Positions 19,842 through 40,990 of a stretch of 64,000 nucleotides of DNA are shown here, in pieces. The DNA is taken from assembly GCA_030424665.1 (NCBI GenBank), contig JAUHWN010000004.1, forward strand, positions 679 to 64,678. The letters are read 5' to 3'. Position 1 is the first letter of the stretch; the number at the start of each line of letters is the position of its first letter. Source of the stretch: Bdellovibrionia bacterium (GTDB lineage: Bacteria; Bdellovibrionota; Bdellovibrionia; Bdellovibrionales; JAGQZY01). The notes under the pieces were generated by a model that searched no databases, was not told the origin of the DNA, and worked only from the letters and a program-made list of their open reading frames with translations. The translations under genes were made by a program, and so were the position numbers.

Positions 19842-19933
19842 CCTAAAAAGCTAGCAAAGACAGGCGCACTTTCCAACAATCTCCTTGAAAAAACTTACAA
19901 ATATGATTGGAATGGGGGCTTACGGAGGCTCAA

Positions 19934-23034: not shown

Positions 23035-23045
23035 TAAAGAATATT

Positions 23046-23102: not shown

Positions 23103-23119
23103 GCAAGAGGGACGATGTC

Positions 23120-23911: not shown

Positions 23912-23912
23912 A

Positions 23913-25271
23913 ATGAAGTTCGGTGTTATCACCCTAGGTATTTTTTCGGCTTTGATATTTATGAACCCAGGTACTGTTCATGCCTCCTCCCAATCAGAGA
24001 CATCCGTGAAGGCGGAAACTGATGCCAATAAAAAGTCCCAACTCGAAAAAGCCTTTATGCGAGAGTTCGCCTTTTTGAAATCCCAAAAGCGAATTCTAGA
24101 AAAGCGAAAGACCCAGGCTTCGGGGTTTTACGGACAGCAAATTAAGAAAATTAAAGGTCAAATTCGGCAACTCGAAAAGACCTTAATTGCTGTCAGTGCC
24201 GAAACTGAAGAATTAAATCAAAATCTTCAAATGGCTCAGAGATCAGTTGAAAGCGTCGACGACAGGGTTAATCTTCTAGAAAACACTATGACTCAGGTCC
24301 AGACGAGTTTAAAAAACCTGGGGCTCAAAGACTCTTGGACGCAAAAAGAAGAAATTGTCAATTTTGAAAAAATGGACAGGCTTCTTAGAAATTCTTTGGT
24401 GGGACTCAATAGAGCCAACCAAGTCATAAAGTCTAAGAGTTCCTACTTTGATGAAAATGGTAAAGAAATCAATGGCGAAGTCCTTCGGATTGGGAGGGTT
24501 GCTTCTTTTGGACTCGCTACTGGTAAAACAGGAAATTTGGCACCCGCAGGAGAGGGGGAATACAAGCTCATTTCTCAATTTGCTGTCGAGAAAGAGCTTA
24601 AGGCTGAAACCCTTCCGATTTTTCTTTATCAGGATGGTCAAAAGGCTTTTGAAGAAAAGTCAGAAAAGACGGTCTTATCAACCATTCAGGCAGGTGGCTC
24701 AATTGCCTGGGTTATTGTTTTATTAGGCCTTTTAGGACTCTTCTTCATTGTCGCACGTTACTTAATGCTAAGAAAAGCGAGTCACGAAGAGGCTGATCTG
24801 GTTTCGAAAGTCGAGGCAAGGCTTGTCGACGATGGACACGAAAGCGCCAAAGAATTTTTAGCTAAGAAAACCACACCGACAGCTCGAGTTCTAAATTACT
24901 GCCTAGAGAAAGTGGGTATTGACCGTGAATCTATGGAAGATGTAATCAACGAAAGCCTTTTGCAAGAGGGACAGAAGCTCGATCGATTTAGTACAGTCAT
25001 CCTAGTTTTTGCGGCGATTGCTCCACTTTTGGGGTTACTGGGCACGGTTACGGGGATGATTTCTACTTTCGATATTATTACAGAGTTTGGTACGGGTGAC
25101 CCAAAGCTGCTCTCTAGTGGTATTTCTGAGGCTTTAATCACAACAGAATTAGGTTTGATCGTGGCAATTCCAACTCTTCTGTTGGGACACTTGCTTTCGG
25201 CCTGGTCGAAAAAAATAAAAGAATCTACTGAGGCAGCTGCCCTTAAAATTTGCCAAGTTATTTGTAGGTAA
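23913..25271 (+). CDS. Large MotA/TolQ/ExbB protein with periplasmic N-domain (TtpC-like)
   Basis: Signal peptide, periplasmic region with RIGRV, then APLLGLLGTVTGMI and GISEALITTELGL; likely start is ATG 23913. Confidence 0.88.
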   Translation: MKFGVITLGIFSALIFMNPGTVHASSQSETSVKAETDANKKSQLEKAFMREFAFLKSQKRILEKRKTQASGFYGQQIKKIKGQIRQLEKTLIAVSAETEELNQNLQMAQRSVESVDDRVNLLENTMTQVQTSLKNLGLKDSWTQKEEIVNFEKMDRLLRNSLVGLNRANQVIKSKSSYFDENGKEINGEVLRIGRVASFGLATGKTGNLAPAGEGEYKLISQFAVEKELKAETLPIFLYQDGQKAFEEKSEKTVLSTIQAGGSIAWVIVLLGLLGLFFIVARYLMLRKASHEEADLVSKVEARLVDDGHESAKEFLAKKTTPTARVLNYCLEKVGIDRESMEDVINESLLQEGQKLDRFSTVILVFAAIAPLLGLLGTVTGMISTFDIITEFGTGDPKLLSSGISEALITTELGLIVAIPTLLLGHLLSAWSKKIKESTEAAALKICQVICR

Positions 25272-25275
25272 GGTT

Positions 25276-25821
25276 ATGCAGGTATTTGAGCGAATCATTG
25301 AACTCATACTTTCAGGTGGATTTGTCGGAGTGCCTCTCGCCGTTCTCACCTTTGTAATGTGGATCGCTCTGAGTTATCGCTACTTTTTACTGAAGTCGAT
25401 TCAAACAACTGACTTTGTGTCTGAGTTAGAGTCCCTCGATAGAAGGGACCTTAGAAATCAAGCCGATGTTGTTTTAAGTGAGTGGAAGTCTCGACTTTCA
25501 GAAAAGAACACTTTGGTCAGTGTCATCGTTGTAATCGCTCCTTTACTGGGGCTCCTTGGTACCGTTGACGGTATGATCGAAACATTTGAGTCTCTCGGAG
25601 ATATGAATCTCTTTTCTCAAAGTGGTGGAATCGCGGGCGGAATTTCTTCGGCATTGATTTCTACGCAAATGGGTCTTTGTGTGGCTATTCCAGGCCTCAT
25701 AGCGATGCGATTACTATTTGGAAAGCAAAAGACTATTTCGGCTCAATTAGAAATCAAGAGAGATACTTTTTTACAACGACAGTCCCTAGGTGGTCTGTCT
25801 CTTCCGAAAGAGGAGGCCTAA
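25276..25821 (+). CDS. exbB: ExbB proton channel protein
   Basis: APLLGLLGTVDGMI and GIS.ALI.TQMGL. Confidence 0.92.
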   Translation: MQVFERIIELILSGGFVGVPLAVLTFVMWIALSYRYFLLKSIQTTDFVSELESLDRRDLRNQADVVLSEWKSRLSEKNTLVSVIVVIAPLLGLLGTVDGMIETFESLGDMNLFSQSGGIAGGISSALISTQMGLCVAIPGLIAMRLLFGKQKTISAQLEIKRDTFLQRQSLGGLSLPKEEA

Positions 25822-25823
25822 AA

Positions 25824-26228
25824 ATGAGACGCAGAGGAAGCCAAAGTGAAGATCAGTTTGGAATTGATATCTCGCCCCTTATTGACATGGTTTTTATCCT
25901 TCTGATCTTTTTCATGGTTTCTACGACCTTTGTCAAAGATATGAAGCTCGATTTGGAACGGCCCGGAGCATCGAGCGCACAGCCGGCATCGAGTAAGAGT
26001 ATTCGTGTTTACATAGACAAAAACAAAGAAGTATTCCTTGATGGTCAGTCCGTAAGAATATGGGTGCTTCAGGGTAAGTTGAGAGACCTTCTTCAAGCAT
26101 CAAATCAAAAATCGGTTTTAGTCGTTACAGATTTAGGTGTACCCGCTGAACGTCTGATAGAAGTCGTTGACCAGTGTCGTCTAGCCGGAGCTGAAGATGT
26201 TGGTGTTGCAACCGAGCAGGAGTCTTAA
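25824..26228 (+). CDS. exbD: ExbD biopolymer transport protein
   Basis: IDISPLIDMVFILLIFFMVST; start at ATG 25824 after GGAGG. Confidence 0.95.
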   Translation: MRRRGSQSEDQFGIDISPLIDMVFILLIFFMVSTTFVKDMKLDLERPGASSAQPASSKSIRVYIDKNKEVFLDGQSVRIWVLQGKLRDLLQASNQKSVLVVTDLGVPAERLIEVVDQCRLAGAEDVGVATEQES

Positions 26229-26864
26229 TTGAAAGACTTTTTAAATAGACTGCAGATTAAATCAATTTTAGTGGGTACAGGACTCAGCTTTTTGATTTTA
26301 TGTGTAATGGCCTATTTGAACGATATTGTGAACGTGCAAAATTCAAAAACAAATGGAAGCACGGTTAATTTTAACGTACAAAAAATCGAAAAAAAGAAGA
26401 CTGCAAAAATAAAGAAGCCTAAAAAACGCAAGAAAAAGCGCAAGAGCCAGGCGCAAAAAAGAGCAAGGCCTGATTTAAAGACAGCTCTATCCGGAAGCTC
26501 ATTCGGTTTGGACCTTTTTCAGGTTGATCTCGGGTTAGGGGATTCCTTAGGAAAAGATCTTCAAGACATGGTTATGACCGAAGATAGTGTTGATAAAAAG
26601 CCGGTAGCTAGTCAAAGAGGCGTCGGCCTGGAATATCCAGCCGAAGCAAAGGCTCGAGGCATTCAAGGTTATGTTAACTTAAAGGTTCTTATCGATCGGC
26701 GTGGCAGAGTTGAAAAAGTGAGAGTTCAAGAATCTAGCCCCAGTGGAGTATTTGATCAGATCGCTATGGATGCGATTCGATCTTGGGTTTTTTCTCCAGC
26801 CGAATATCAAGGAGAGCCCGTTCGCGTTTGGGCCAAGCAATTAATCCGATTTGAATTGGAGTAG
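26229..26864 (+). CDS. tonB: Short TonB energy transducer
   Basis: N-terminal TM and YP.EA..RGIQGYV...F.PA..QG TonB_C domain; 211 aa. Confidence 0.92.
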   Translation: MKDFLNRLQIKSILVGTGLSFLILCVMAYLNDIVNVQNSKTNGSTVNFNVQKIEKKKTAKIKKPKKRKKKRKSQAQKRARPDLKTALSGSSFGLDLFQVDLGLGDSLGKDLQDMVMTEDSVDKKPVASQRGVGLEYPAEAKARGIQGYVNLKVLIDRRGRVEKVRVQESSPSGVFDQIAMDAIRSWVFSPAEYQGEPVRVWAKQLIRFELE

Positions 26865-26867
26865 ACT

Positions 26868-28040
26868 ATGAAGTTTAATTTCCTGCAAAAATTCAAGAGT
26901 GTCAGCACTTTAGTTTTGACCTATCTAATGATGATCAGCTCGGCTCCAGCTCAAGACGATGTCGATTTTTACTCTATTGCACAGAGATTGGTCCAAGATG
27001 CTCAGTACAATCGTGCCTTAACATATATAAAAAGTATTCCTGAGGACGCAGATATATCGAAGGCTCGGATGAGCTTGTTAAAAGGAATTGTCTTTGTCAA
27101 TACCAAGGCCTTTGAGGAGGGGCGAAAAGAGCTGGAGAGAGCTTTGCTTCAGTTTAAAGATGAAGAGCTAAAGATTCCCCCTGAGGTATATCTCTATTAT
27201 TGTCAGAGCTTCTTTTTGCAAGGGGATTTTACCGGTAGCCTAAAATCATTAGAAAAATACTCTAAGGAATTAGCAAGGGAACCAAAGGCCCAAATTATCC
27301 GAGCCAATAGTTTATGGAAACTCGACCGCAAAGAAGAGGCATGGCAAATTGTACTCAAAGGAGAAGAGAATTTCCCAAATGAAATTCTTTTTTCACGACA
27401 GAAAATTGTCTTTATGATGGAGCTTGGACTCTATGAAAATGCTTTTCAGTTAGTTTTGCAGTATCTAGTTGAAAACTCAGCTCCCCCTCAAGAGTTCCTC
27501 AGTTTTGCCGTGAACTTTAGAAAAGCTAAACAAGAAAAGAATTCACTTAAACTTTTTGAAGTGGCTCGGCTAAGATTTCCGAGAAATGAAATGATATTGT
27601 TGGAATTTGCTAATAGTTACTACGAAAAAGGAAAGCTCTACCGAGCGGCTGAAATCTTTGAAGAATTGAGTCGTAGAAATACAAAGTACGTCAAAGAGGC
27701 CTCTGAACTTTATCGACGGGCAGGGTATCCGATGCGTGCCCTTGCTTTAAATAGAAAAATACAAGATTCAGAGACGAAGTTAAAACAGAGGCTAGCAATT
27801 TATATTGATCAATCTGATTTTGAATTAGCATCGAGCATGGAGATGGAGTTAAATAACTTAGGTCTCGGGAAAGACCAAGATATTAGCTACGCCCTAGCTT
27901 ACAGTCATTTTCAGATTGGGAAGATTCAGCAGTCTAAAGAACTCTTGCGAAGAGTTACCAGAGAGGATCTTTACCGCAAAAGTCTAGCTTTAAAGTCATT
28001 GATGTCAGCCTGTCTTGATGGTCAGGGAGCTTGTTTGTGA
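26868..28040 (+). CDS. TPR protein (TtpD-like)
   Basis: Signal peptide followed by tandem helical TPR-like repeats; follows tonB. Confidence 0.75.
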   Translation: MKFNFLQKFKSVSTLVLTYLMMISSAPAQDDVDFYSIAQRLVQDAQYNRALTYIKSIPEDADISKARMSLLKGIVFVNTKAFEEGRKELERALLQFKDEELKIPPEVYLYYCQSFFLQGDFTGSLKSLEKYSKELAREPKAQIIRANSLWKLDRKEEAWQIVLKGEENFPNEILFSRQKIVFMMELGLYENAFQLVLQYLVENSAPPQEFLSFAVNFRKAKQEKNSLKLFEVARLRFPRNEMILLEFANSYYEKGKLYRAAEIFEELSRRNTKYVKEASELYRRAGYPMRALALNRKIQDSETKLKQRLAIYIDQSDFELASSMEMELNNLGLGKDQDISYALAYSHFQIGKIQQSKELLRRVTREDLYRKSLALKSLMSACLDGQGACL

Positions 28041-31000
28041 AGCTGATTCTATCATTGCTCGTCATTCTCAGTGTTTGTAATCCTGCTAGAGCTCAGCATA
28101 TTAAAGCAGAGATAAATGCTGACCCGGATTCAAATGTCGACACAAATTCCGTTGCTGAAATCGAAGTCTATCTTTTTGAGTCTGGAGAGGCTGTTCGGTT
28201 TGCGCCCATTTTAATCGATGGAGCTGCAGTCGCTAAAACAGACGAGGATGGATTTGCTATCCTCCAAAGTTTTACGGGGCTCAGAACTATTGAATTCGTT
28301 TTGAATCAAGGCAGAACACTTAAATATCCAGCTCAGTTTAAGAAAGATCAGCCTGGAAAACTCTTCATTAACATCAGAGGAGAATCTTTAGTTTCTGATT
28401 TTGAAAAAACCCAAAGGTCGATCGAGAAAAAAAGGATCGTCGGTCAGAATGTTGTTGAATTGCAAGGAACCGTTAAGGACGCGGAATCTGGAGCTCAACT
28501 CAGAGGTGCAAAAATCTTTTTTATGGGTATAGAAGAAGAGGCTGTGAGTGACGTCTATGGTAACTTTCGTGTCAAAGTTCCAGTTGGTCAGCATACCCTA
28601 ACAGTGGTTCACCCCAAGTATTCAAGTAAAACTATTAAAGACCTCGAAATCAGCACGAGGGCAAAAACAATTTCTATAGAATTGGAGTCGTCGGGCCTAA
28701 AGCTCGATGACTTTGTCGTTCTAGCTCCTAAGGTTCAGGGATCCGTATCGGCCCTCATCGAGCTCAGAAGAAATACGAGTAATGTAGCGGAAGTACTTGG
28801 TGCCGAACAAATTTCGAAATCAGGTGATAGTGATGTCGCAGCCAGTTTAAAAAGGGTGACTGGTCTAACCCTAGTGGATGGAAAATTTGTTTATGTAAGG
28901 GGGCTCGGTGAGAGATATTCGAGCATTTTACTCAATGGGTTTAATCTACCGAGTCCGGATCCATATCGACGGGTGATCCCTCTTGATATGTTTCCTACCA
29001 GTGTTCTTGAATCGATGGTCATCCAAAAAAGTTACTCTCCCGATCGTCCTGGTGAATTCGGAGGAGGGACTATTGAGATGCGTACTAAGTCGATCCCTAA
29101 GAAGTTTTTCTTTAAATACTCTTTTGGAAGTTCAGTCGAAGACTACGAGAACTTCAAGTCCTACAATGGAGGTAAAACCGATGCACTTGGATTTGATGAT
29201 GGAACAAGGGCTCTCCCGGTAGCATTAAAAGAGGCATTGGCTGGAAATCGTGAACTTAGAGAAGTGAATCCATTTAACCCAGAGGGATTTACAGCCGAAG
29301 AGTTAACGACTCTCTCTAGGAGCCTATCGAATAATTATTCGATCAAATCAGAAGATCCTGAAGTTCCTTATGACATCAAAGTTGCCAGCGGAGGTCAGTT
29401 GGATCTTGGAGTAGGGCGCTTTGGTCTCATGGGGTCCGTGCTTTATAAAAATAGTTTCGATCAAGACATAAAACAACAGTCCAAATATTTGTCCACTGGA
29501 GAGGAGCTTGTCGAAAGTGAGTCACGACGTATAGAGGAAAATGAAAAGACGGTTAATTTAGCACTCAGTTTAGACTTTGGTTTTCAGTGGAATAAGAAAA
29601 ACAGGATTGAGGTAACTAATTTGTTACTTCGAAAGACGACAGATACTGTCGAAATAAATTCTGGTACAAATGCCGAAGGTGAAAATACGATCGATACCAC
29701 TCTAGACTACATTGAAACTCAATTGAGATCCCATCAATTGCGAGGAAGTCACGAGGACCTCTTTGCGGGAAATGGCATAGATTGGCGAGTCTCTCAATCT
29801 CAGGCTCTGCGAAGTAATCCTGATCAAAGATTTTATCGGTTCGAAGAAGTTGACAGTGAATATCGTTTCAGTAACCGCAATGATGGCAATCAAAGGTTGT
29901 ACAATGAGCTCGTCGACGACATTATTGATTATGGCTTCGACCTGAGTATTCCTGTAAGTCTGGGTTCTATCGTTGATAGTTTTAAAATTCGAACGGGTGC
30001 GAGTCTGACCGAAAAAAGGCGAGAGAATGACACGAGACGTTTCACGTTTTCGGATAAGCGAACTAATGGGTCGGCTGAAGATTTAAAAGGAGATATCAAC
30101 GAGGTCCTAGGGCAAAGCGCAATTGGTCGGGATGGTTTTCTGTTGGTCGAGTCAACCCGGGCGACGGATAACTACTTTGCGAAACAGCGAATCGGAGCCA
30201 TTTATGCGCTCATGGAGAGCGAGATAACTTCTAAGCTAAAGATTCTCGCTGGGGCCCGATATGAGAATTCAAAACAGGAAGTGACGACTTTTGATTTACA
30301 CAACAAAGACAACTTACCAATTCGTGCGGAACTTGAAACAGTAGATATTCTTCCAGTTTATACGGCAACGTATAAGTTGAATCGAAAGGGTAATATGCAG
30401 CTTCGAGCCTCATACTCAGAGACCCTTTCGCGACCTGATTTTAGAGAATTGAGTAGCTCAACTTATACCGACGATATTGACAATATCGAAGTTGAAGGGA
30501 ATCCAGAGTTAGAAACGGCAGTCATAAGTAATTCTGATTTGCGATGGGAATATTACTTTAGTTCCGATGAGCAAATTAGTTTTGGAGGTTTTTACAAGTA
30601 CTTCGAGAAACCGATCGAAGCCATCATTAAGCCAGGAACAGAAGGAAAGCGATCATTTGATAATGCGAAGTTTGCGCGTAACTATGGCCTTGAGTTTGAT
30701 ACTCGATTTCGTCTCAAGCCAATGAGTAAAAATTTAAGAAATTTTACTATTGGAACTAATGTTTCTAGAATTTTATCAAAGGTTGAAATCGATGAAGCTT
30801 CCAAGTCTATTCAAACCTCTGATGTTAGGCCACTTCAAGGACAGTCTCCTTACGTCTTTAATTTTCAGCTGGAGTATGACCGCAAAAAATCGGGAACTAC
30901 GGCTTCTCTTTTGTACAATGTCTTTGGCCAAAGAATCACTGAGGTGGGAACAAGTAAGCGTCCAGATATAATTGAAGATCCCTTTTATCAACTGGATTTT

Positions 31001-31153
31001 GTTCTCAAACAAAAAATTGGAAAAACTTATTCTGTTGGATTGAAGGCGAAGAATCTGCTCGACCCCTACGCGACGGCTCGGCAAGGTGCTGAGGTAACTC
31101 GACGTTATAAAAAAGGGCGTGCATTTAGCCTTGCTTTTTCGGGGAGTTACTAA
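28031..31153 (+). CDS. TonB-dependent receptor with N-terminal carboxypeptidase-regulatory-like domains
   Basis: G.VKDAESG..L.GA extension, plug region (YVRGLGERY) and a beta-barrel ending in an aromatic residue (FSGSY). Confidence 0.93.
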   Translation: MFVKLILSLLVILSVCNPARAQHIKAEINADPDSNVDTNSVAEIEVYLFESGEAVRFAPILIDGAAVAKTDEDGFAILQSFTGLRTIEFVLNQGRTLKYPAQFKKDQPGKLFINIRGESLVSDFEKTQRSIEKKRIVGQNVVELQGTVKDAESGAQLRGAKIFFMGIEEEAVSDVYGNFRVKVPVGQHTLTVVHPKYSSKTIKDLEISTRAKTISIELESSGLKLDDFVVLAPKVQGSVSALIELRRNTSNVAEVLGAEQISKSGDSDVAASLKRVTGLTLVDGKFVYVRGLGERYSSILLNGFNLPSPDPYRRVIPLDMFPTSVLESMVIQKSYSPDRPGEFGGGTIEMRTKSIPKKFFFKYSFGSSVEDYENFKSYNGGKTDALGFDDGTRALPVALKEALAGNRELREVNPFNPEGFTAEELTTLSRSLSNNYSIKSEDPEVPYDIKVASGGQLDLGVGRFGLMGSVLYKNSFDQDIKQQSKYLSTGEELVESESRRIEENEKTVNLALSLDFGFQWNKKNRIEVTNLLLRKTTDTVEINSGTNAEGENTIDTTLDYIETQLRSHQLRGSHEDLFAGNGIDWRVSQSQALRSNPDQRFYRFEEVDSEYRFSNRNDGNQRLYNELVDDIIDYGFDLSIPVSLGSIVDSFKIRTGASLTEKRRENDTRRFTFSDKRTNGSAEDLKGDINEVLGQSAIGRDGFLLVESTRATDNYFAKQRIGAIYALMESEITSKLKILAGARYENSKQEVTTFDLHNKDNLPIRAELETVDILPVYTATYKLNRKGNMQLRASYSETLSRPDFRELSSSTYTDDIDNIEVEGNPELETAVISNSDLRWEYYFSSDEQISFGGFYKYFEKPIEAIIKPGTEGKRSFDNAKFARNYGLEFDTRFRLKPMSKNLRNFTIGTNVSRILSKVEIDEASKSIQTSDVRPLQGQSPYVFNFQLEYDRKKSGTTASLLYNVFGQRITEVGTSKRPDIIEDPFYQLDFVLKQKIGKTYSVGLKAKNLLDPYATARQGAEVTRRYKKGRAFSLAFSGSY

Positions 31154-31930
31154 ATGGCGAGTTTGACGAGAGGTAATATGAACTCCAGCTTCAGATTTGG
31201 AATAATAGTGGCTTTGCTATTAATAAATTTCGGATTGAGTTCATGCGGGTATCACCGCACTGTCTCTAAAGAAACTTCAGCGGATGGTAGCTTCGAGGGA
31301 GGTGATAAGCCGAAAACCTCAGCCGAAAAAAATCTCTTTGAACTTGTCGAGAGTGGAGACATAGAAAGTTTACGCTTACGAATCGCTCGAGGAAGCGATC
31401 TCGCTTTGACCAATGAAAAAGGTCAGTCTCTTATAATGTGGGCTGTTATATGGAACCAAAAAGAGATCATTGAATTACTTCTCCAAGAGGGAGTTAACCT
31501 TGAGATTCGTGATAAAGATGGAAGGACTGTCCTCGAATATCGCGACGTCAGTGAGGAGCTCGTGGTCTTTATTGAGGCCTGGCAAATGCGCGAAGAGCTA
31601 CAGACTGAATTTAAGGAGGCTCTTGAAATTGCTGACTTTAAAAGAGTTTCTGAACTCCTCGAACTGGGAGTGAGCCCAAGTGTCCGCTATGAGGAAGGTG
31701 CAACGGCTCTCATTTTAGTTCTTAAAATAGCAGACCCTAAGGACCGTGGAAGTTATCGAAATTTTCGCAGAGTGATACAGGCCCTTCTTAAATTAGACAC
31801 GAGTCGCAAGCCAGTCTATGAGGTTGATTTGAATGCTCAAGATGATTTTGGGAAGTCGGCACTCGACTGGGCCAAAGAAAAAGGGGACCGCGGTTTGGTT
31901 AAAAATTTGGAGATGATTGGAGCACTCTGA
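31154..31930 (+). CDS. Ankyrin-repeat lipoprotein
   Basis: Lipobox LSSC; ankyrin repeats GQSLIMWAV, GRTVL, GATALI and GKSALDWA; the start may be ATG 31178. Confidence 0.8.
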   Translation: MASLTRGNMNSSFRFGIIVALLLINFGLSSCGYHRTVSKETSADGSFEGGDKPKTSAEKNLFELVESGDIESLRLRIARGSDLALTNEKGQSLIMWAVIWNQKEIIELLLQEGVNLEIRDKDGRTVLEYRDVSEELVVFIEAWQMREELQTEFKEALEIADFKRVSELLELGVSPSVRYEEGATALILVLKIADPKDRGSYRNFRRVIQALLKLDTSRKPVYEVDLNAQDDFGKSALDWAKEKGDRGLVKNLEMIGAL

Positions 31931-32026: not shown

Positions 32027-32049
32027 AATTCAGCTCCTGCTGAATTTTT
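32027..32049 (+). terminator. Possible terminator after the ankyrin gene
   Basis: AATTCAGC-TCCT-GCTGAATT followed by TTT. Confidence 0.45.
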
Positions 32050-32132: not shown

Positions 32133-33995
32133 TTGGTGTCTATTAGGTCCTTACTTTGCCTATTGGTTTTATTGGGGTGGATGAGTCCGGGGTTCGCACA
32201 AGATTTTGTTCCAGGGGAAGTCATCGTAAAATTGAAAGATCGCGACTCTGGCAAAGCCAATTTCATGAGTAAGTCGTCAGCTTCGATGACTCTCAAAAAA
32301 TCCTATCCGGTTTTAAGAACTCACAAAATGGCCCTAAAAAGCGGTGCCGATGTTATGGCCACAGTCGATGCCCTTAATAATGACCCCGACGTCGAATATG
32401 CTGAGCCAAATTATTACCTCAGAAAATCAAGCACTGAGCAGGCCCAAGGCCGTGTCGATTACGAAAGTGCCCAGGCGGCATTTTATGAAGTTCAATCTAT
32501 GAGTGGATCGAGCTTTAATCAAAGTAGCGCCAATATTCAGGCCGAGCAGGCTTGGGATTTATTGTCCGGGGGGGCGACTCCTCCGGTGATCGCAGTCATT
32601 GATACTGGAGTTGATTATAATCACGATGTTTTTCAAGACAGCGGAGCCATGTGGGTTAATCCCGGAGAAGTGCCTGGTAATGGAATTGACGATGATAATA
32701 ATGGTTACATTGACGATATTCATGGCTGGAACTTTGTGGCCAATAGTAATTCGCCCATTGATGACGATGATCATGGAACTCACGTAGCTGGAATTATCTT
32801 GGGATCAACCCAGAATATTTTGGCGTCACCAATCGGTTCAGCTCAAATTCGAATTATGGCTCTTAAGTTTCTTGATGACCAGGGGATCGGAACCACGACG
32901 GACGCCATTGAAGCTATTCATTATGCGATAAACAATGGTGCAAAAGTTCTCAATAACTCATGGGGTGGAGGAGGATATTCTCAAGCTCTCAGAGACGCTA
33001 TTGTATCCTCTAATAATAATGATCTAGTTTTTATTGCCGCCGCTGGAAACCAAGCTTCAAATAATGATAGCTACGCGACTTATCCTGCCAACTACGACAT
33101 TCCCAATGTATTTTCGGTAGCGGCCACGAACGACTACGACTACCTCGCTAGTTTTTCGAACTATGGTAAGAGTACAGTCCATATAGCAAGTCCCGGTGTT
33201 TCCATATACAGTACACTCGCTGGAAATAGCATGGGGTATCTTTCGGGAACAAGTATGGCAGCTCCCTTTGTTGCGGGTCTTGCGGCTATGATGGTTCATG
33301 AAGAAAGTAGTATCGATGGCTTTCAAGTAAAAACGATAATTGAAGATACGGCCAATCGTGTTCTTAGTTTACAAAACCGTGTTGCCAGTGAGTCTCGGAT
33401 TAATATGTACAACGCTGTTAATGTCGCAGCGACGGGACAAGCTCTCAATTATCAGCCAGGGAGTAACATTGACCCCTCAAGAGAAATCGCTTCTGAAGTT
33501 CAGGGTGGTGGTTGCGCGGCAATTCTTCCGCTTATAAAAGATATTATTGGTGGTCCTAAGGGACCATCGGGTCCCGCGAATTACTTACGCTTTCTCGGAC
33601 TGCTTCTGGTTCTTCTTTCTCCGGTAATGATTCTATTGACCATGAGAAATGCGAGTAAAGAACGAGAGGCCCAAGGCGGTGGACAGAATAGACGACGTTA
33701 TGACCGTTTTAAAGTCGATACTCAGGTGCAGATTTTCTTTGGTAGTCAGCAGCTTTGTGGTGCTGTCAGTTGTATTTCCCTGGGGGGGGTAAGAATTGAT
33801 ACCCATGATTCACTTCACGACGGAGATCAAATTTCAATGAAGATCCAAGGACCTGACGAAGATAGCTACATCGAAGCCAGTGGTGAAATCGTTTGGTCGA
33901 AGGATCAAGAATCCTATGGTGTGAAGTTCAACGAAATCGATGATATGAATAAGGTTCAGATCAGCGAGTGGACAAAGGTTCTAGAAAAAGACTAA
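32133..33995 (+). CDS. S8 subtilisin-like serine protease with C-terminal TM segment and PilZ domain
   Basis: Signal peptide, propeptide, triad IDTG / HGTHVAG / GTSMAAP; GGGC plus hydrophobic segment; RRRYDR and ISLGG PilZ motifs. Confidence 0.9.
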   Translation: MVSIRSLLCLLVLLGWMSPGFAQDFVPGEVIVKLKDRDSGKANFMSKSSASMTLKKSYPVLRTHKMALKSGADVMATVDALNNDPDVEYAEPNYYLRKSSTEQAQGRVDYESAQAAFYEVQSMSGSSFNQSSANIQAEQAWDLLSGGATPPVIAVIDTGVDYNHDVFQDSGAMWVNPGEVPGNGIDDDNNGYIDDIHGWNFVANSNSPIDDDDHGTHVAGIILGSTQNILASPIGSAQIRIMALKFLDDQGIGTTTDAIEAIHYAINNGAKVLNNSWGGGGYSQALRDAIVSSNNNDLVFIAAAGNQASNNDSYATYPANYDIPNVFSVAATNDYDYLASFSNYGKSTVHIASPGVSIYSTLAGNSMGYLSGTSMAAPFVAGLAAMMVHEESSIDGFQVKTIIEDTANRVLSLQNRVASESRINMYNAVNVAATGQALNYQPGSNIDPSREIASEVQGGGCAAILPLIKDIIGGPKGPSGPANYLRFLGLLLVLLSPVMILLTMRNASKEREAQGGGQNRRRYDRFKVDTQVQIFFGSQQLCGAVSCISLGGVRIDTHDSLHDGDQISMKIQGPDEDSYIEASGEIVWSKDQESYGVKFNEIDDMNKVQISEWTKVLEKD

Positions 33996-34023: not shown

Positions 34024-34051
34024 CAAGAGAAAGACGTTCGTCTTTCTCTTG
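34024..34051. terminator. Hairpin between convergent genes
   Basis: 12-bp perfect stem CAAGAGAAAGAC-GTTC-GTCTTTCTCTTG. Confidence 0.65.
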
Positions 34052-34068: not shown

Positions 34069-34581
34069 TTAAAATATAATTTGGACCTTGAGCATCCAGT
34101 CACTGACGATGTTTCCGCGATAGATGTCTTCGCTGCCGATGGCATTAATAATATTTAAATTCTCGATACCAATATTGAGCCCTTGGGTGATTGTCATCAT
34201 GGTGCCAATGGCAAACATCGGTGTGAGTGTCACCTCTCCATCGAAATTGTCGATTTTGATTCGTGTTATGCCAAGGCCAGGCGCTGCGTAGATTTCCCAA
34301 GAGCGAATCGGAAAATGAGCCTTGTAAAAAGCACCAAAGTTAATGACTTCGGGCTGACCATTATCACCACCGGTGTAGAAGCGAGCTAATCCGCCGATGC
34401 CAAAATCTCTATGGAGCATGTATTCGTAGTCGATTCCAAGGCCGATACCACCACCGTGAAATCCAAGAGCTCCCACAAGGTTGTGATCTCGATTGGCATA
34501 ATCCAGTTCAGGATTAAATAGTGAAGCCTGACAGATAGGGCTCAAACCGAGGATAAGAATTATTAGAGTTAGATATTTCAT
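34069..34581 (-). CDS. Small outer-membrane beta-barrel protein
   Basis: Signal peptide, about 8 amphipathic Gly/aromatic strands and a C-terminal Phe. Confidence 0.7.
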   Translation of the reverse strand: MKYLTLIILILGLSPICQASLFNPELDYANRDHNLVGALGFHGGGIGLGIDYEYMLHRDFGIGGLARFYTGGDNGQPEVINFGAFYKAHFPIRSWEIYAAPGLGITRIKIDNFDGEVTLTPMFAIGTMMTITQGLNIGIENLNIINAIGSEDIYRGNIVSDWMLKVQIIF

Positions 34582-34727: not shown

Positions 34728-35606
34728 TTAGTTTCCTCGCTCTTCTGTCGTTCCATAGGTTTCTGTAAAGAAGTCCATGTCCACTTCGGGGACTTTAGCT
34801 TCGCAAATATCTTTGATCCCTTGGGGAGCATTTCTGAGTTCACCGGATTGACTCACACCAAGCACGAGCCACAAGTCTTCAGCAATGGCGTCTTGTCTAT
34901 AGACGCCATTACAGAAAACGTTGACGTTATCAAAGAGTGCTTTTGGGAAGATGCCTGCTTGTCCAGCAGCTTCGATACCAAATTCAGGACCTTCTCTTTC
35001 GAATTGAAGAAGAACATCATTGTTGTCGCCAAGAGCGTACTTTTCACTCTGGGGATCAATGTAATCGAAGACCTCTGGGTTTCTGATGGCTCGAAAAACA
35101 TGTTGAACCATACGGTTTGCGCTAACCTCGGTCAGTTGGGTTTTAGTCCAAATTTCATCACTATCGCGCATACCACGGGCCACAGTTTTGTACTTACCAT
35201 TATCTAAGCGTCTAGAGACAGTGATATAGGCTTTTAATCGGTGACCTCTTGGGCTGCCTTCTCCACCATAGCGAATCCATTGGGATCTATTCAGGTGAAG
35301 GTTGAGGATAATGCTGACTTTATAGGCGGCATCTTCTTGATCGGCTCCTCCTAATCGTCCACCGGAGTGCTCTTCGACGCTGGGAACGAACCACTCGTGT
35401 TTTCCGATCATCATATTTTGAATGCGACTTTCACTTTGAGTTAGTTCAATTTCGCTCATATCGCCACCTTGTTCATACTCGACAAAGACGCGGTTAAACT
35501 GCATTCCGCACTCAACATAGGGGAATTCGGTTATACTTTCTAGCTCGACAGCGAAGACTGTTGAAGACAAAAGCAGTAGTAGGGGGATTGATAAAAGTTT
35601 TTTCAT
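34728..35606 (-). CDS. Secreted hypothetical protein
   Basis: Signal peptide (STVFA); ATGA overlap with the stop of the upstream metalloprotease. Confidence 0.75.
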   Translation of the reverse strand: MKKLLSIPLLLLLSSTVFAVELESITEFPYVECGMQFNRVFVEYEQGGDMSEIELTQSESRIQNMMIGKHEWFVPSVEEHSGGRLGGADQEDAAYKVSIILNLHLNRSQWIRYGGEGSPRGHRLKAYITVSRRLDNGKYKTVARGMRDSDEIWTKTQLTEVSANRMVQHVFRAIRNPEVFDYIDPQSEKYALGDNNDVLLQFEREGPEFGIEAAGQAGIFPKALFDNVNVFCNGVYRQDAIAEDLWLVLGVSQSGELRNAPQGIKDICEAKVPEVDMDFFTETYGTTEERGN

Positions 35607-38600
35607 TGAACGTACTCCGGGTGAGTAAAGTAAAGAAACATATTCATAAATTGGATATTACTAAATAGGTAAGCGTACTGAAGCTCCATAAAGCTTTCGC
35701 TCAAAAGAATACTTAAGGCATTCTTTAATGGTCTTGGAAGTCCAAGGTCGTCCTTGAGTAGGGTCGCATAGGCAATCCAAACGCCAGGGTTGACGCGAAT
35801 AAAATTCTTAATGCGATTTTGTTGGGCCAATATGAACTCAAACTTCTCTTGAAGCGGAACGTTGTCGTCGTCCTGGATTTCGATGACCTGGACGGCTGTT
35901 TGAATGAGCTTGTCCATTTCTTGGAGGAAAAGTCGAGCTTCTCTCGAGCCTGTATTTTCTGGAAAATTCCTAAGCCCCTCGTTGATGGCACTTCGAATTT
36001 GTTCCTTTCGTTCGGCGAGAGCATCAAGTTCTGTTTGAGTTGCACCACCTTCGAGAATATAAACTTCTTCTTCTCTTCCTGCGCGAATTTCTTGTTCAGC
36101 CTTTTGTTTTCTGAGGTGAGTGATAAAGTACTCCTTAAAACTTTGTCTGAATTCAGTTTCGTGTTCGATCATAAATTTGAGATCTGCGGCATTTTTATGG
36201 ATCATATATGAGCCTAAAGCTCCATCAAATGGCCAGTATTTTAGGGTATTGATAGAATCCGGGTTTGAGCCGAGCTGGGTGAGCATGGGGACCCCAGAAA
36301 GTCGTTCGCTCTCGTGACCTAAAATACTGCCAAAGCGAAAGAAGCTAGAAAAATTGTCAGTGGCTTCAATTGTATTGGTGTCGAGCATAACCATAGCCGC
36401 AATGACTGAGTAGATACGGACAAGTTCACTGGACGTGGCAGAAAAGGTCGCATCGGGGACAATCTCTAGAGTCTTTTGCGGCGTTAAAAAGGCAGGCCGG
36501 AGTCTCTCGGAAAGAATCGAAATGATAAGCTGAATGGTTTCAGATTCAAAAGCGCTTCCTGAGATCACTTTTTCTAGGTCGGGGTAAGAGAATCGGACGA
36601 GCTGCTGATCGTATTCTGGAATACCAATACGTCGAGTAGTAAGCATCATCATGGCAATCACTTGATCAAACTCAATTCCTCTCACTTTGAGGCGTCCCAA
36701 CGAACCTTGTAGCCACTGATCTCTCGAAGGTTTGCGTTCGACAACATAGGTGATTTCCGGTAGATCCTGAGGCTGAATCGTGACTTCTTTAAAGCGATTT
36801 TCGATATCGAGTAATGGGTTGAGCTCGGGAGTGCGAATAATCGAATGGAAGAAATCGCGACCAAGAATTGCCGCTGAACCAAATTCATCTTCGATGGCAC
36901 CAAATTCCATGCGTAAGCCGAGATCAGTTTCGCTCCGTGTTTGAGCTTCGGTCTGCAAGCTGCGAATTCGGAAGGCCGTTTCATCGAGAAAGTGTCTAAT
37001 GCGAATAAAGTAAAAATAGAGGCGATAAATATAGCGATAAACTTGGTACCACTGAAAGTTAATACGATCTTTAGGCAAGTTCGTAAGGCTGTAAAAGGAA
37101 TGATAGTCATCGATAACATTACTCACGATTTCAGCTGGTGTCGTTCCAAGATCGTGACGATTACAGATAGGCGAGCGACGAGTGTCTTCATCACTACAGT
37201 ACATATAACGCTTATTAGGGATCTGCCTAATATGAGAAGTTTCGATCTCTTCCCAGTGTTCGAGATCGAGTTGGTCTTTGATATCTGAAATTTGAATAAA
37301 GCGATCGTTAATGATATTCCAGCTTTGTTCGCTGTCTGACATTCGGCTCTGATCAACCTCAAGAAGTCCCGTGTAGGCAGCGCGCACGGCCTGAACGTCA
37401 TAAGGGCCGGGGCCATTATATTCTAGATGGGCATCTGAAATGTAATCCATAACCGTAGTGTAGTTACGGTTGACCTCTTCGGGATTTTCGTCATCAAAGT
37501 TCCAGTTCTTTTTATCGTAGGAGCCCAGGAAATTATGACGGAGGCCGAAGGCGTGACCCAATTCGTGACTTAGAGTTTTACGATAGCTCGAAACCAAGAG
37601 TTCGGTAATGTCGCCATCGATATAGCGCTCAGAATAGCCGATTTCTTTGGTTTCTAGGACCGTGTGGCCAGAGTTAATATTTTTGATAACTTCATTAGTG
37701 AAAAGTTCTTTTTGAATTTCAAAAAGTGCCATTTGCTTTGTATTCTGATCTAGTCGCTCACTAGTGCGAATGTATTCCATCAACTCACGACCGAGACTCT
37801 CTCCAATTTTTGCCTCATCAGTCAGTGCGCCTTCTTCGAGGGTATTTTGTAAAGTTCTGAGCAAGAAGAGCTCTCTTTTGAGTTTAGGGTCTTCAGTACC
37901 TACTTGGTGGTTCGGAACCTCGAGACTTCTAATATCGAGCAGACTTCTATTCATACTAAGAGTTGCCTGAAAAATGTTTCGGTCTCTGCTCTCTTGTGGA
38001 AGGGTGTCGAGTCGCTCCACATAATTGATAGTTGGATTAAAGCCTGTGAAATCCATATCAGAATACCAAGGGATAGCGACCTCTTGGCTATCGCCAGCTT
38101 CGGCATCTCGTCTAGCCTCAAGAGCTTCCATTTCAGCACGCATTCTCTCGCCCGCCTGACGGACTCTTTCGCGACGTTCCTCATCGATTTGTTCTTGAAT
38201 ATCTTCAAGTTGATTCAGGCGTTCAATGGTCTCTCGATATTTCATGTTTTCGTTGTATTCTTTACGGGCCAGGGCGCGATCCTTTTCCCATTCCAAAACA
38301 TTGCGAATGTTTCCGCCGTAAACCATGACATCAGAATTTTCAAAAATTCCAGAGCGCGGATTCGGAGAAGGGTTAACCATTCCTAGAACTTTCATGCGAA
38401 GATCTTTGTCGAGCCAGTAAATAAAGTTCTTATCGAGGTCACCCAACTGGGCCGAATCGTCCTCTAGAACTTCGAGAGCTAGGTAATTGCCCGCTCGCTC
38501 AAGGGGAGTGTCTTTAAAAGCCTTTTTAAGGGTTCGATTCCAGTCTTCAATGACACTTTGAGTGGCTTCAATAAGACCTGCGCGCAGACGCCCATCATTG

Positions 38601-40990
38601 GTTGGAAGGCCTGCAAGAGTATAGGTAATAACTTTGCCATTTCTAAAACTATGCTGCATTTGAAGGGGAGGCCTGGTGCCTATGCGTCCAATATTATTGT
38701 ACTCATTGGGGTTCTTGCCTCTAAATGTGAAAATGCCGTATCCGAGCCGACGTTGGGCCTCGTAGGGAATGGCTTCGATATCGGGAACGTCATTTTCTCC
38801 GTTATACTTTTTAAAAGAGATACGTTCCTTGAAAGTAAAGTTTGCTTGTGACGGGTACCAATAGTGAATCAAGCCAGAGGTTAGCCACTGGTAACTACAA
38901 CCGGGGTAAGGGTGAACGGCATAGGTTCCTTCGAGTGAGAAGTTTAGCACTCCATCAGAGGGTAGTCGCATGTCAATATCGTTCACAGTACTATTCGCCT
39001 GGCGAATTAAACACTGCCCTGCTCCAAAGTAAGAAAGAGGTGAGGCTACGATTGGAATTGTATTTTGTCTCCAGTCGATGATGGCAATTGCACCTTCAGC
39101 CTGGGGTGAACTCTCGATGTACTCGTCAGACCAGAGGTCTTCACCCCGTTCGTTTTGGTTCCTTCGAACGTAATAACGAGCCGGAAGGGAAATGAGTTCT
39201 TCAAAATCCGTTTCAGTATTATTAGGATGGGGGTCGAGAGCGTAGGCCCTTTTTACAACGACCCGCTCCTCTTCAAAGTAAAACTTCACAATCTCGAGCT
39301 GACCATTGAGACCAGGAAAGGTCAGTGGAAAACGATTTGGAGAATCGAGTAGTGTTCTTCTAAAGAGAAACTCTTGATTTCTCATTTGATCGACGATGAG
39401 AGTGTTTCTGAGGTCACCCGTTAGACCATCTCTAATAACTTCAGGAGTGGCACTCGAATCGATAATCATTAAAAATTGAGCTCCCGGATTAAGCGCACGT
39501 CGTGTTGAAAGAGTGGGAGATTGAATATCGTTGTCGGCTTGAATTGAAGGCAAAAAGACTTCAATGGGTTGTATGGGAACTCTATGGGAAATAACAACCA
39601 CACAATTGCCAGGATTGAGTCCTGACTGAGAGGCCTCTTCTGTAGTACATCGACGGATTCTCTCTTGATCTTGCCCTTGCGCGAGAAGCTGCCTTCTACG
39701 CTCAGTGATGCTCGAATCATTGAGAGTCGTTATTTTAAAAATATAGAGGCCGCTGCTGAATGTGCGAGTTAATATTCGAGCATTGTCATCTAAATTGATA
39801 TTAAGGCCAGACACGCTTTCAAACTGTCCAACTGTAAAAATGCGCTGATCGAAATCTCGCGAGTTCAGAATTTCTCTTCCGGAATCGTCGGTGTTAAGGG
39901 GCATGTCGACTGCGAGTCTACGATCTTTATTCAGGGGAATTTGCACGTGGCTTGCCTCAGAAAAGCTCGATTCTTCTAAGTAAAGAGTGGGGCCCTTGAA
40001 ACCTTGATCGTCTTTTATTTGTGCGACTTTTCCGTAGGAGATGACGGGAACTTTAAAAAGAGGAGTGATGGTCTTTCCATCTTCAGATTGAATACTGATT
40101 TGCTGCTGAATGGACGAGAGGCTTTCGGGGCCGCTACTGACTCTATAGGCAGTCATATAAGAGCTATCAAATGCGATTTTTAATTGAATTTGCTCCCCTG
40201 GAGTTCCAGGTAAATAGAGTTCATCAAGAAGCAGTTTCATCTGGTCCGGAGCGCTGCTACTCGTTACAGGAAGGAGTCTACCAAATGACGGACTCTCTTT
40301 AAACATCTCTTCCGAATCAGCAAGAGTGACTTCAAACTGAATCCCGTCGAATTGCTCGAGACCAAACATTTGAGGTTTAATAGTCTGTGGGAAATCCACC
40401 ATGATTCGACTTCTTACGGAAGGTGAGAACCGCAGGTGGGTTGCGTTTTCCCAAGATGTTTCTTGAAGGCGTAACAAACTCGTTTCTTCGTCAATCGTAT
40501 TTTTTATTCTTTTAGTTTTACCGTAGGACTGAATCCGGTACATAAAGGCAGGATAGACCTGGGAGTTGTTATGGTTCGATACAATGCCTTTATTTCTAAC
40601 GTGTGCGGCGACCTCTTCATTAAGAACCTGGTAAACCGTGATATACTTTTCATTCACCTCAAGGTTAAATTCAAGTGATTGGCCGGTGCTGGTTTCTAGG
40701 TAAAGTTCGTCAAAAAGGGGTTTTAGGGCTCCTGGTACGTTCGAGGCTTGGAACTGACTTAAAACTTGCGGGCGAAACACATTTCTACTTTGATAGATGC
40801 GGGCATCGGCTTCTTGTCCGGTGCTCCCTGTGACTCTCATTTTCTTTAGAGTACTGATTGAAAAGATATTGTCGCCAGCCCCATCTGGAAACTTGGCGGG
40901 TCTTTTTTCGGTACACGAAATAAGGCTCATAGCTAGCAATGCTAGTATCATCAATTGAATTTTGATTAAAAGGTTCTTCATTAAATCCAT
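35603..40990 (-). CDS. Giant zinc-dependent metalloprotease lipoprotein (metzincin, EcxA/DUF4953-like)
   Basis: Lipobox LISC; HELGHAFGLRHNF (HEXXHXXGXXH); TTVMDY Met-turn; the true start may be ATG 40981 (TAATG overlap). Confidence 0.88.
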   Translation of the reverse strand: MDLMKNLLIKIQLMILALLAMSLISCTEKRPAKFPDGAGDNIFSISTLKKMRVTGSTGQEADARIYQSRNVFRPQVLSQFQASNVPGALKPLFDELYLETSTGQSLEFNLEVNEKYITVYQVLNEEVAAHVRNKGIVSNHNNSQVYPAFMYRIQSYGKTKRIKNTIDEETSLLRLQETSWENATHLRFSPSVRSRIMVDFPQTIKPQMFGLEQFDGIQFEVTLADSEEMFKESPSFGRLLPVTSSSAPDQMKLLLDELYLPGTPGEQIQLKIAFDSSYMTAYRVSSGPESLSSIQQQISIQSEDGKTITPLFKVPVISYGKVAQIKDDQGFKGPTLYLEESSFSEASHVQIPLNKDRRLAVDMPLNTDDSGREILNSRDFDQRIFTVGQFESVSGLNINLDDNARILTRTFSSGLYIFKITTLNDSSITERRRQLLAQGQDQERIRRCTTEEASQSGLNPGNCVVVISHRVPIQPIEVFLPSIQADNDIQSPTLSTRRALNPGAQFLMIIDSSATPEVIRDGLTGDLRNTLIVDQMRNQEFLFRRTLLDSPNRFPLTFPGLNGQLEIVKFYFEEERVVVKRAYALDPHPNNTETDFEELISLPARYYVRRNQNERGEDLWSDEYIESSPQAEGAIAIIDWRQNTIPIVASPLSYFGAGQCLIRQANSTVNDIDMRLPSDGVLNFSLEGTYAVHPYPGCSYQWLTSGLIHYWYPSQANFTFKERISFKKYNGENDVPDIEAIPYEAQRRLGYGIFTFRGKNPNEYNNIGRIGTRPPLQMQHSFRNGKVITYTLAGLPTNDGRLRAGLIEATQSVIEDWNRTLKKAFKDTPLERAGNYLALEVLEDDSAQLGDLDKNFIYWLDKDLRMKVLGMVNPSPNPRSGIFENSDVMVYGGNIRNVLEWEKDRALARKEYNENMKYRETIERLNQLEDIQEQIDEERRERVRQAGERMRAEMEALEARRDAEAGDSQEVAIPWYSDMDFTGFNPTINYVERLDTLPQESRDRNIFQATLSMNRSLLDIRSLEVPNHQVGTEDPKLKRELFLLRTLQNTLEEGALTDEAKIGESLGRELMEYIRTSERLDQNTKQMALFEIQKELFTNEVIKNINSGHTVLETKEIGYSERYIDGDITELLVSSYRKTLSHELGHAFGLRHNFLGSYDKKNWNFDDENPEEVNRNYTTVMDYISDAHLEYNGPGPYDVQAVRAAYTGLLEVDQSRMSDSEQSWNIINDRFIQISDIKDQLDLEHWEEIETSHIRQIPNKRYMYCSDEDTRRSPICNRHDLGTTPAEIVSNVIDDYHSFYSLTNLPKDRINFQWYQVYRYIYRLYFYFIRIRHFLDETAFRIRSLQTEAQTRSETDLGLRMEFGAIEDEFGSAAILGRDFFHSIIRTPELNPLLDIENRFKEVTIQPQDLPEITYVVERKPSRDQWLQGSLGRLKVRGIEFDQVIAMMMLTTRRIGIPEYDQQLVRFSYPDLEKVISGSAFESETIQLIISILSERLRPAFLTPQKTLEIVPDATFSATSSELVRIYSVIAAMVMLDTNTIEATDNFSSFFRFGSILGHESERLSGVPMLTQLGSNPDSINTLKYWPFDGALGSYMIHKNAADLKFMIEHETEFRQSFKEYFITHLRKQKAEQEIRAGREEEVYILEGGATQTELDALAERKEQIRSAINEGLRNFPENTGSREARLFLQEMDKLIQTAVQVIEIQDDDNVPLQEKFEFILAQQNRIKNFIRVNPGVWIAYATLLKDDLGLPRPLKNALSILLSESFMELQYAYLFSNIQFMNMFLYFTHPEYVQ

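Follow-up and report, generated by a model that had tools for sequence, protein, structure and literature searches.

A subtilase gene with a C-terminal PilZ domain

A 64,000-nucleotide stretch of the genome of a Bdellovibrionia bacterium (assembly GCA_030424665.1, contig JAUHWN010000004.1), referred to here as the window, encodes an open reading frame (ORF) on its forward strand between 32133 and 33995 which combines a pre-pro-subtilase with a single transmembrane (TM) helix and a PilZ domain. This ORF of 620 amino acids (aa) was present as given in an initial annotation of the window. Three Pfam domains, Fervidolysin_NPro-like, Peptidase_S8 and PilZ, were found in it, all of them far above the curated cutoffs. 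The features of the ORF, located by Pfam, hydropathy, conservation and AlphaFold2 (AF2) modelling and numbered from the first codon, are as follows.

32133-33995, + strand: whole ORF, pre-pro-subtilase, TM helix and PilZ; 620 aa counted from TTG, 619 aa from GTG
32133-32198, + strand: signal peptide, aa 1-22, GFA↓QD (hydropathy; AF2 helix at 4-15)
32199-32504, + strand: pro-domain, aa 23-124, invariant EPNY (Pfam match over residues 22-93, E = 3.9e-12; AF2 beta-alpha fold)
32583-33359, + strand: Peptidase S8 catalytic domain, aa 151-409 (Pfam); the fold reaches about aa 433
32601-32603, + strand: catalytic D157, invariant in 100/100 homologs
32772-32774, + strand: catalytic H214, invariant in 100/100 homologs
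33048-33050, + strand: oxyanion N306, invariant in 100/100 homologs
33252-33254, + strand: catalytic S374, invariant in 100/100 homologs
33432-33503, + strand: disordered periplasmic linker, aa 434-457, with invariant Pro442 and near-invariant Arg450 (AF2, conservation)
33504-33515, + strand: GGGC motif, aa 458-461; Cys461 is the only invariant Cys of the family
33525-33584, + strand: short juxtamembrane helix, aa 465-472, then a Gly/Pro-rich spacer, aa 473-484 (AF2)
33585-33647, + strand: single TM helix, aa 485-505, with invariant Pro497 (Kyte-Doolittle maximum 2.31)
33687-33968, + strand: PilZ domain, Pfam aa 519-612; six-stranded beta-barrel at 525-599 and C-terminal helix at 604-616 (AF2)
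33690-33707, + strand: RRRYDR, the PilZ RxxxR motif (R521, R525); RxxxR[YF] in 120/120 sequences
33768-33788, + strand: SCISLGG, a variant of [D/N]xSxxG, with C547 at the D/N position and S549, G551 and G552 invariant

The ORF opens with the codons TTG-GTG (32133-32138). The true start is probably the GTG at 32136 rather than the TTG at 32133, as the spacing from a Shine-Dalgarno-like GGGGAG is 6 nt for the GTG but 3 nt for the TTG, and the public database copy of the window protein (P0001) is 619 aa long.

Signal peptide, pro-domain and catalytic domain

The signal peptide and the complete D/H/S triad proposed in the initial annotation were both borne out. Residues 1-22 were hydrophobic and led into the GFA↓QD cleavage context, and D157, H214 and S374 were located together with the oxyanion N306. 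The Peptidase_S8 match scored 171 bits (E = 4.5e-50) against a cutoff of 21.8. The catalytic apparatus is intact as judged from these residues, and proteolytic activity is predicted. The pro-domain motif EPN[YF] was present in 119 of 120 family sequences. An AF2 model of the full-length protein, built on an alignment of 100 sequences, reached a mean predicted local distance difference test score (pLDDT) of 84.8 and a predicted template modelling score (pTM) of 0.73 and placed the pro-domain packed against the subtilase core; Foldseek also paired the window protein with unprocessed pro-subtilisins.

The solved structure nearest to the catalytic domain was deseasin MCP-01 (3vv3; E = 9.1e-68, 41% identity, TM-score (target) 0.85), and thermitase-type subtilases were also near. 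Deseasin and thermitase are freely secreted, unlike the tethered window protein. The mycosins (MycP) are likewise S8 proteases anchored by a C-terminal TM helix, and a mycosin model (TIGR03921) was the best NCBIfam match, although its 114.7 bits fell far below the cutoff of 278.75 and only the catalytic core aligned. Mycosins belong to type VII secretion in Actinobacteria and Firmicutes and do not have PilZ.

Linker, juxtamembrane cysteine and membrane topology

Hydropathy analysis revealed only one TM segment beyond the signal peptide (485-505), which in the AF2 model was part of a long helix spanning 481-513. The mean net charge of the family was +5.1 in the 15 aa after this segment versus +0.2 before it. 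From the signal peptide, the single TM segment and the charge bias, the protease is predicted to be periplasmic and the PilZ domain cytoplasmic. The domain order and N-out/C-in topology of the initial annotation agree with this prediction and with the Pfam matches, and the best reading of the gene product is a type-I bitopic inner-membrane protein with a predicted periplasmic subtilase and cytoplasmic PilZ domain. The further description of it as a surface protease did not hold, as the protein as encoded would be tethered at the periplasmic face of the inner membrane and would reach the surface only if processed.

The GGGC motif (458-461), the hydrophobic helix (485-505) and the basic residues after the helix were all located where they had been reported. 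Upstream of them, AF2 pLDDT was below 50 across residues 443-463, a stretch that includes Cys461. A single juxtamembrane Cys was found in 120/120 sequences, in the context [GA][GA]C-G-[LM]-[VI], and was invariant in the alignment (100/100). It preceded the TM helix by 15-28 aa across the family. Pro497, inside the TM helix, was present in 100/100 homologs, and the helix was followed in the window protein by R505...RRR520-522 (family consensus LRxRxxGxxRRR). The linker was otherwise variable around the invariant Pro442; 93 of the 120 sequences carried a QPx[YF] motif here, which reads QPGS in the window copy (33453-33464, aa 441-444). QPx[YF] echoes the EPN[YF] of the pro-domain and could be an autoprocessing site.

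PilZ domain

The PilZ match (PF07238, E = 5.7e-15) reached 55.9 bits with the full-length protein and 60 bits with the tail alone, against a cutoff of 22.5. A sequence-profile search of the C-terminal module against the PDB was weak (best E = 0.009), so a fold comparison was needed to confirm the assignment. AF2 of the C-terminal module alone gave a pLDDT of about 90 over the barrel. A Foldseek search of the PDB with this module returned PilZ domains as all of the best matches, most of them ligand-bound (E 6e-6 to 1e-3, TM-score (target) 0.69-0.79), including MotI/DgrA, MapZ, Alg44, YcgR, BcsA and PA0012. The C-terminal domain is thus predicted to fold as PilZ, as had been supposed.

Both ligand-site motifs were found as described, RRRYDR at residues 520-525 and SCISLGG at residues 546-552. 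The distance from the TM helix to RxxxR had a median of 9 aa in the family (range 6-18) and was 16 aa in the window copy. S549, G551 and G552 were invariant in 100/100 homologs. The D/N column was assigned via the PDB profile alignment, in which the Asn of MotI 'NISAGG' falls there. This alignment confirmed that Cys547 occupies the canonical D/N position, but Cys is a minority state: across 120 members the position was S in 63, T in 44, C in 6, K in 5 and R in 2, and was never D or N. Of the motifs from which binding of cyclic diguanylate (c-di-GMP) had been suggested, RxxxR (120/120) and the Ser and Gly residues (100/100) therefore stood and the D/N residue (0/120) did not. Because D/N is absent family-wide, c-di-GMP binding cannot be assumed; it is plausible on sequence grounds, the remainder of the site being invariant.

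Distribution of the family

A protein search returned at least 120 clusters of approximately 600-690 aa, of which 119 list all three domains and one (P0081) is without the N-pro match. Most clusters were 45-50% identical to the query, and the named sources were metagenome-assembled genomes of Bdellovibrionota. P0002 (89% identity) and P0003 (68%) belonged to the own clade of the window protein, outside of which identity was about 45-50%. Genomes were scanned with a C-terminal-only alignment; a full-length alignment picked up S8 motifs, mostly from unrelated subtilases. The scan revealed 43 genomic loci, every one from Bdellovibrionales, Pseudobdellovibrionaceae or Bdellovibrionia, and one of these (L081) was 98-99% identical to and syntenic with the window. 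When the C-terminal module was used as the profile for an exhaustive search, 58 representatives reached E <= 1e-30, and the full-length ones were 596-680 aa long with the module at the extreme C-terminus. Two short, Met-initiated entries (P0121 and P0130), considered as stand-alone genes for the Cys motif, TM helix and PilZ domain, were contig-edge fragments. As all full-length module matches carry the S8-PilZ fusion and the short entries checked were edge fragments, the fusion is obligate among these matches.

It could be argued that the PilZ tail was joined on in error during assembly, or that an ordinary anchored protease carries it as a vestige. The identical architecture in at least 120 clusters (from NCBI, JGI, ENA and Logan assemblies) and at 43 genomic loci speaks against this, as does the conservation of PilZ to the same degree as the catalytic domain (mean pairwise identities of 0.62 and 0.63 respectively, versus 0.34 for the linker) and the detection of an ortholog, Bd2545, as a protein. 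A chance or misassembled fusion is ruled out by the Pfam E-values and the conservation across clusters, and we regard an artefactual or decaying fusion as extremely improbable.

The architecture was tabulated in 2008, as Subt-PilZ, for B. bacteriovorus NP_969350.1 (PMC2605481), and a 2020 review names Peptidase_S8 among the partner domains of PilZ (PMC7288161). The domain-architecture search thus showed a recurrent combination that is already catalogued, and the window protein joins an existing family and is not a new kind of protein. Literature searches brought up no functional study of Bd2545, and for the PilZ-subtilase combination only these catalogue mentions (PMC2605481, PMC7288161).

The HD100 ortholog

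The ortholog in Bdellovibrio bacteriovorus HD100 was identified as Bd2545 (UniProt Q6MK66; NP_969350.1) from its annotation, its gene neighbourhood and the 2008 table. It carries the annotation of an S8 subtilisin-like protease and is located between MgtE (Bd2544) and DUF502 (Bd2546), as in the Bdellovibrio-type loci L107, L118 and L121, which keep the GC-G motif, the TM Pro, RxxxR[FY] and T[IL]SxGG. The window protein differs from Bd2545 in belonging to a different Bdellovibrionia lineage, in its gene context and in having Cys, not Thr or Ser, at the D/N position. Two other HD100 proteins were rejected as the ortholog: Bd2692 (BspE) is a 53-kDa secreted protease with S8 only (PMC6510308), and Bd2717 is a YcgR-like PilZ protein.

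Lambert et al. (2010) counted Bd2545 among three pilZ genes whose expression falls as cells leave attack phase (PMC2797640). In a 2025 quantitative proteome it was represented by 13 peptides (PMC12546842 Supplementary Data 1), with log2 values that stayed at approximately 5.0-5.2 between attack phase and 1 h, were down to 3.7 at 4 h and stood at 4.1 at 7 h; the value for RpoB in the same table was approximately 10.3 (PMC12546842). The units of this table were checked against the published 4.0-fold change of Bd2321. Bd2545 is therefore a low-abundance attack-phase and early protein. The window gene itself appeared in sequence-read data from DNA metagenome runs only.

Relation to C-terminal sorting tags

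The initial annotation compared the GGGC-TM-basic segment with MYXO-CTERM and GlyGly-CTERM sorting signals. By definition, tags of this type close a protein with a short motif containing Cys, a TM helix and an Arg cluster, and they are cleaved by CPBP-type myxosortases (bioRxiv 10.1101/2023.06.07.544157, PMC11980579). The family segment shares with the Cys-type tags (JDVT-, MYXO- and Synerg-CTERM) the tripartite order of Gly-rich Cys motif, TM helix and Arg cluster. A Pro in the TM helix is invariant in the family segment, as it is in Synerg-CTERM, and is found as DP in JDVT-CTERM. Several S8 relatives without PilZ ended in GGGGGC...TM(Pro)...RRRR tails. The tail from locus L042 matched JDVT-CTERM (53.5 bits, cutoff 27) and MYXO-CTERM (22.1 bits, cutoff 20), and that from L074 matched Synerg-CTERM (39.7 bits, cutoff 22.5). 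The tagged genes were located at 7803-10040 of L042 (Mariprofundaceae), at 6432-10302 of L074 (Aminobacteriaceae, two in tandem) and at 7965-9668 of L034 (Thermodesulfovibrionales). The L034 tail was unrecognised by the models (JDVT-CTERM 7.4 bits only) and may be an undescribed variant.

The segments of the window protein and four other family members had no match to the CTERM models at E <= 10, GlyGly-CTERM (TIGR03501-type) included, whereas the L042 and L074 tails passed as positive controls. A hidden Markov model (HMM) of the family segment, searched against 6587 ORFs (1.68 Mb), found S8-PilZ proteins only, except for one marginal match (E = 0.03), which was with the tag that ends the L034 protease. 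The family segment was always 101-116 aa from the C-terminus, and hence never terminal, as about 105 aa of PilZ follow it; values of 142-146 aa in the HMM search came from matches split in two, of which they were the first halves. Its Cys-to-TM spacing of 15-28 aa also contrasts with the approximately 11-14 aa (by eye) of the L042 and L034 tags. A crude motif screen (EExxxR/FxxxH/HxxxN, >=3 TM) found no CPBP-like ORF in the window or in 44 family loci. The resemblance to sorting signals therefore stands for the Cys-type design and its occurrence on tagged S8 relatives, but not for GlyGly-CTERM, for any model match or for the terminal position. VesB of Vibrio cholerae is a secreted serine protease whose C-terminal TM tag, part of the GlyGly-CTERM/rhombosortase system, decides its surface retention; it is an S1 (trypsin-like) enzyme with a terminal GlyGly tag and no Cys, unlike the S8 protein of the window.

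Genetic context

The upstream flank exceeded 2 kb in 31 loci. Of these, 19 had a gene for a PpiD/SurA-like peptidyl-prolyl isomerase (PPIase) approximately 200 bp upstream of the S8-PilZ gene and in the same orientation; this PPIase gene is divergent from mreC-mreD-mrdA-rodA. In the window and L081 a 10.7-kb block (21697-31930) of TonB, ExbB, TonB-dependent receptor and ankyrin genes separates the two genes. This block looks like an insertion common to L081 and partly to L082, since the flanking PPIase (19907-21433) and S8-PilZ genes are adjacent in 19 related loci. It encodes DUF3450, two ExbB-type proteins, TonB, a TPR protein, an ankyrin-repeat protein with a lipoprotein-like N-terminus and a 1040-aa TonB-dependent receptor with a CarboxypepD_reg domain. 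In the window, the region between 16271 and 21433 contains the cell-shape cluster mrdA (PBP2)-mreD?-mreC divergent from the PPIase gene; the 178-aa middle ORF of this cluster had no family match and is MreD by position only. No conserved operon partner was found among YceI, DUF502, MgtE and unannotated proteins of 462 aa and 690 aa, which are clade-specific neighbours only. The context points loosely to envelope biogenesis and names no partner.

Two hairpins flank the gene, both recognised by consensus match only.

32027-32046, + strand: terminator-like hairpin in the gap between the upstream ankyrin gene and the ORF
34024-34051, no strand assigned: hairpin with a 12-bp stem between convergent genes, a probable bidirectional terminator

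The upstream hairpin suggests that the ORF has its own promoter, and the hairpins on both sides suggest that the S8-PilZ gene is monocistronic. Rfam gave no match to a riboswitch or other RNA element in the whole window.

Convergent with the S8-PilZ gene and downstream of it (34069-34581, - strand) is a gene for an outer-membrane beta-barrel protein of about 170 aa, with a weak OMP_b-brl match. A small OMP_b-brl-like neighbour recurs just downstream, again convergent, in the otherwise differing loci L081, L082, L086, L097 and L125. In eight other loci (L087, L090, L095, L096, L100, L101, L116 and L120) the convergent gene (- strand), about 67 bp downstream, encodes a conserved protein of approximately 690 aa for which Pfam gave nothing significant; its C-terminus is PilZ-like by eye, with Pfam not confirming.

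Two long ORFs lie further downstream in the window. The first (35603-40990, - strand) encodes 1795 aa with a match to the Met-zincin family DUF4953 and the zinc-binding motif HELGHAFGLRHNF; the DUF4953 protein of HD100, Bd3137, increases from a log2 value of 7.9 to one of 9.4 in the first hour of predation (PMC12546842). The second (42958-51039, + strand) encodes 2693 aa. Its sole Pfam match was the Peptidase_G2 IMC autoproteolytic cleavage domain (residues 2498-2568), and its product looks like a giant tailspike-like or adhesin-like protein.

Discussion

We propose that the S8-PilZ protein is a periplasmic subtilase tethered to the inner membrane and that a cyclic dinucleotide bound at the PilZ domain sets its activity, oligomeric state, position or release, a reading which we put at about an even chance. 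The Sec signal peptide would export a pro-subtilase of the deseasin/thermitase type to the periplasm, where it would autoprocess and stay tethered via a disordered linker of approximately 50 residues and the single TM helix. A cytoplasmic cyclic dinucleotide, most probably c-di-GMP, would clamp the PilZ barrel onto the membrane-proximal RxxxR arm, and the Pro-kinked TM helix, possibly within a Cys461-mediated dimer, would relay this change to the protease, altering how it oligomerises, where it sits, how stable it is or whether it is released. In this way the cleavage of envelope or surface proteins belonging to the predator itself would be linked to the c-di-GMP state behind attack-phase behaviour. 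Ligand binding, transmembrane coupling and substrates are the parts of this model that we infer.

There are precedents for the separate elements of such a system. The membrane-adjacent PilZ domains of BcsA (cellulose synthase) and Alg44 (alginate co-polymerase) control periplasm-facing machinery, and in both, as here, an RxxxR-armed PilZ lies beside a TM helix on the cytoplasmic face. They differ in their polysaccharide output and canonical DxSxxG; in addition, BcsA is polytopic and the PilZ of Alg44 is N-terminal. In LapD/LapG of Pseudomonas, cytoplasmic c-di-GMP governs the action of a periplasmic protease on surface proteins. The proposed model resembles this logic and would be its one-polypeptide analogue. 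LapD and LapG, however, are two proteins with no sequence relationship to the S8-PilZ family; the receptor combines degenerate GGDEF-EAL with HAMP and a periplasmic domain, and LapG is a Cys protease which is sequestered rather than tethered. In Bdellovibrio, c-di-GMP controls predation and growth (PMC3271064).

Several points weigh against ligand-controlled tethering. The D/N residue of PilZ recognises the guanine edge, and in other PilZ proteins its change from D to A abolishes binding; with D/N missing from all 120 members, affinity or specificity may differ, and we know of no validated c-di-GMP-binding PilZ with S or T at this position. A single TM helix is a poor signalling conduit unless the protein oligomerises. 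The context implicates no substrate or partner, the only recurrent neighbour being the PpiD/SurA-like PPIase. The invariant Cys and TM Pro fit a processing model equally well and, as each model explains both, do not separate the two.

In that processing model the Cys would be modified and an intramembrane protease (CPBP/Rce1-type or other) would cut the tag, with the PilZ ligand gating or reporting cleavage; the products would be a lipid-anchored or free subtilase for surface or prey and a remaining TM-PilZ stub. We consider it unlikely. Helix-breaking residues are typical of intramembrane-protease substrates, and the invariance of both the Cys with its flanking Gly and the TM Pro is in keeping with it, as are the genuine tags of like design on the related L042 and L074 proteases and the marginal HMM match to the L034 tag. 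However, five family segments match no CTERM model while the controls pass, the spacing from Cys to TM is lengthened by an inserted helix and a Gly/Pro spacer, the segment is never terminal and occurs on no other type of ORF in the 1.68 Mb, and the module matches include no natural split or stub forms. The crude screen also returned no CPBP-like ORF in the window or the 44 loci, and single-client systems such as JDVT usually carry an adjacent protease (bioRxiv 10.1101/2023.06.07.544157, PMC11980579). The most economical account of the evolution of the family, inferred from sequence, is that an S8 protease with a Cys-type tag gained a PilZ domain behind the tag, whose Arg cluster merged into RxxxR. 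A second-messenger-gated form of sorting, in which c-di-GMP or 3',3'-cyclic GMP-AMP (3',3'-cGAMP) decides intramembrane cleavage of the PilZ-grafted Cys tag, is decidedly doubtful; such cleavage would send a lipid-anchored subtilase to the predator surface and leave a membrane PilZ stub. 3',3'-cGAMP is considered as the gating ligand because of the change from D/N to S/T.

The PilZ domain might instead be a ligand-independent adaptor which docks the protease to a partner (e.g. at the pole, pilus or motor), or it might bind another ligand such as 3',3'-cGAMP; we think this reading as a whole quite unlikely. The replacement of D/N in 120/120 members favours this, and PilZ proteins of the XC1028 type, which serve as adaptors without c-di-GMP binding, were among the weaker Foldseek matches. 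For the other-ligand variant it also counts that Bdellovibrio makes 3',3'-cGAMP via Bd0367 (PMC9140294). Against it, the invariant RxxxR, Ser and Gly-Gly form the signature of a nucleotide-binding PilZ, and the best structural matches were ligand-bound domains; the non-binding PilZ domains known to us have lost RxxxR. Auto-shedding, in which self-cleavage of the linker at a site resembling that of the pro-domain frees the subtilase from its anchor and PilZ merely sets the place or time of the precursor, would account for the resemblance of QPx[YF] (93/120) to EPN[YF] (119/120) and for an invariant Pro442 in a variable linker. We judge it very unlikely, as the QPGS of the window copy is without the aromatic residue, Pro442 may only cap the folded S8 domain, and the invariant Cys and TM Pro are left unexplained.

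Beyond the catalogued architecture, the present analysis connects the family with Bd2545 and its expression pattern, describes the fusion as obligate and lineage-restricted, and brings out the loss of D/N in all members, the invariance of the Cys and TM Pro, and the kinship of the segment to genuine Cys-type tags on related proteases. c-di-GMP decides whether Bdellovibrio attacks, glides or grows, and to our knowledge almost none of its approximately 15 PilZ proteins has a known output. If the proposed control of a tethered protease is true, the connection of PilZ with a protease across the membrane would give c-di-GMP a direct effector arm for envelope or surface remodelling, and if the tag-processing reading is true, the field of myxosortase-type sorting would gain a ligand-gated case. 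Three family-wide features, the D/N replacement, the juxtamembrane Cys and the TM Pro, give hypotheses that are testable in Bd2545, in a tractable model predator.

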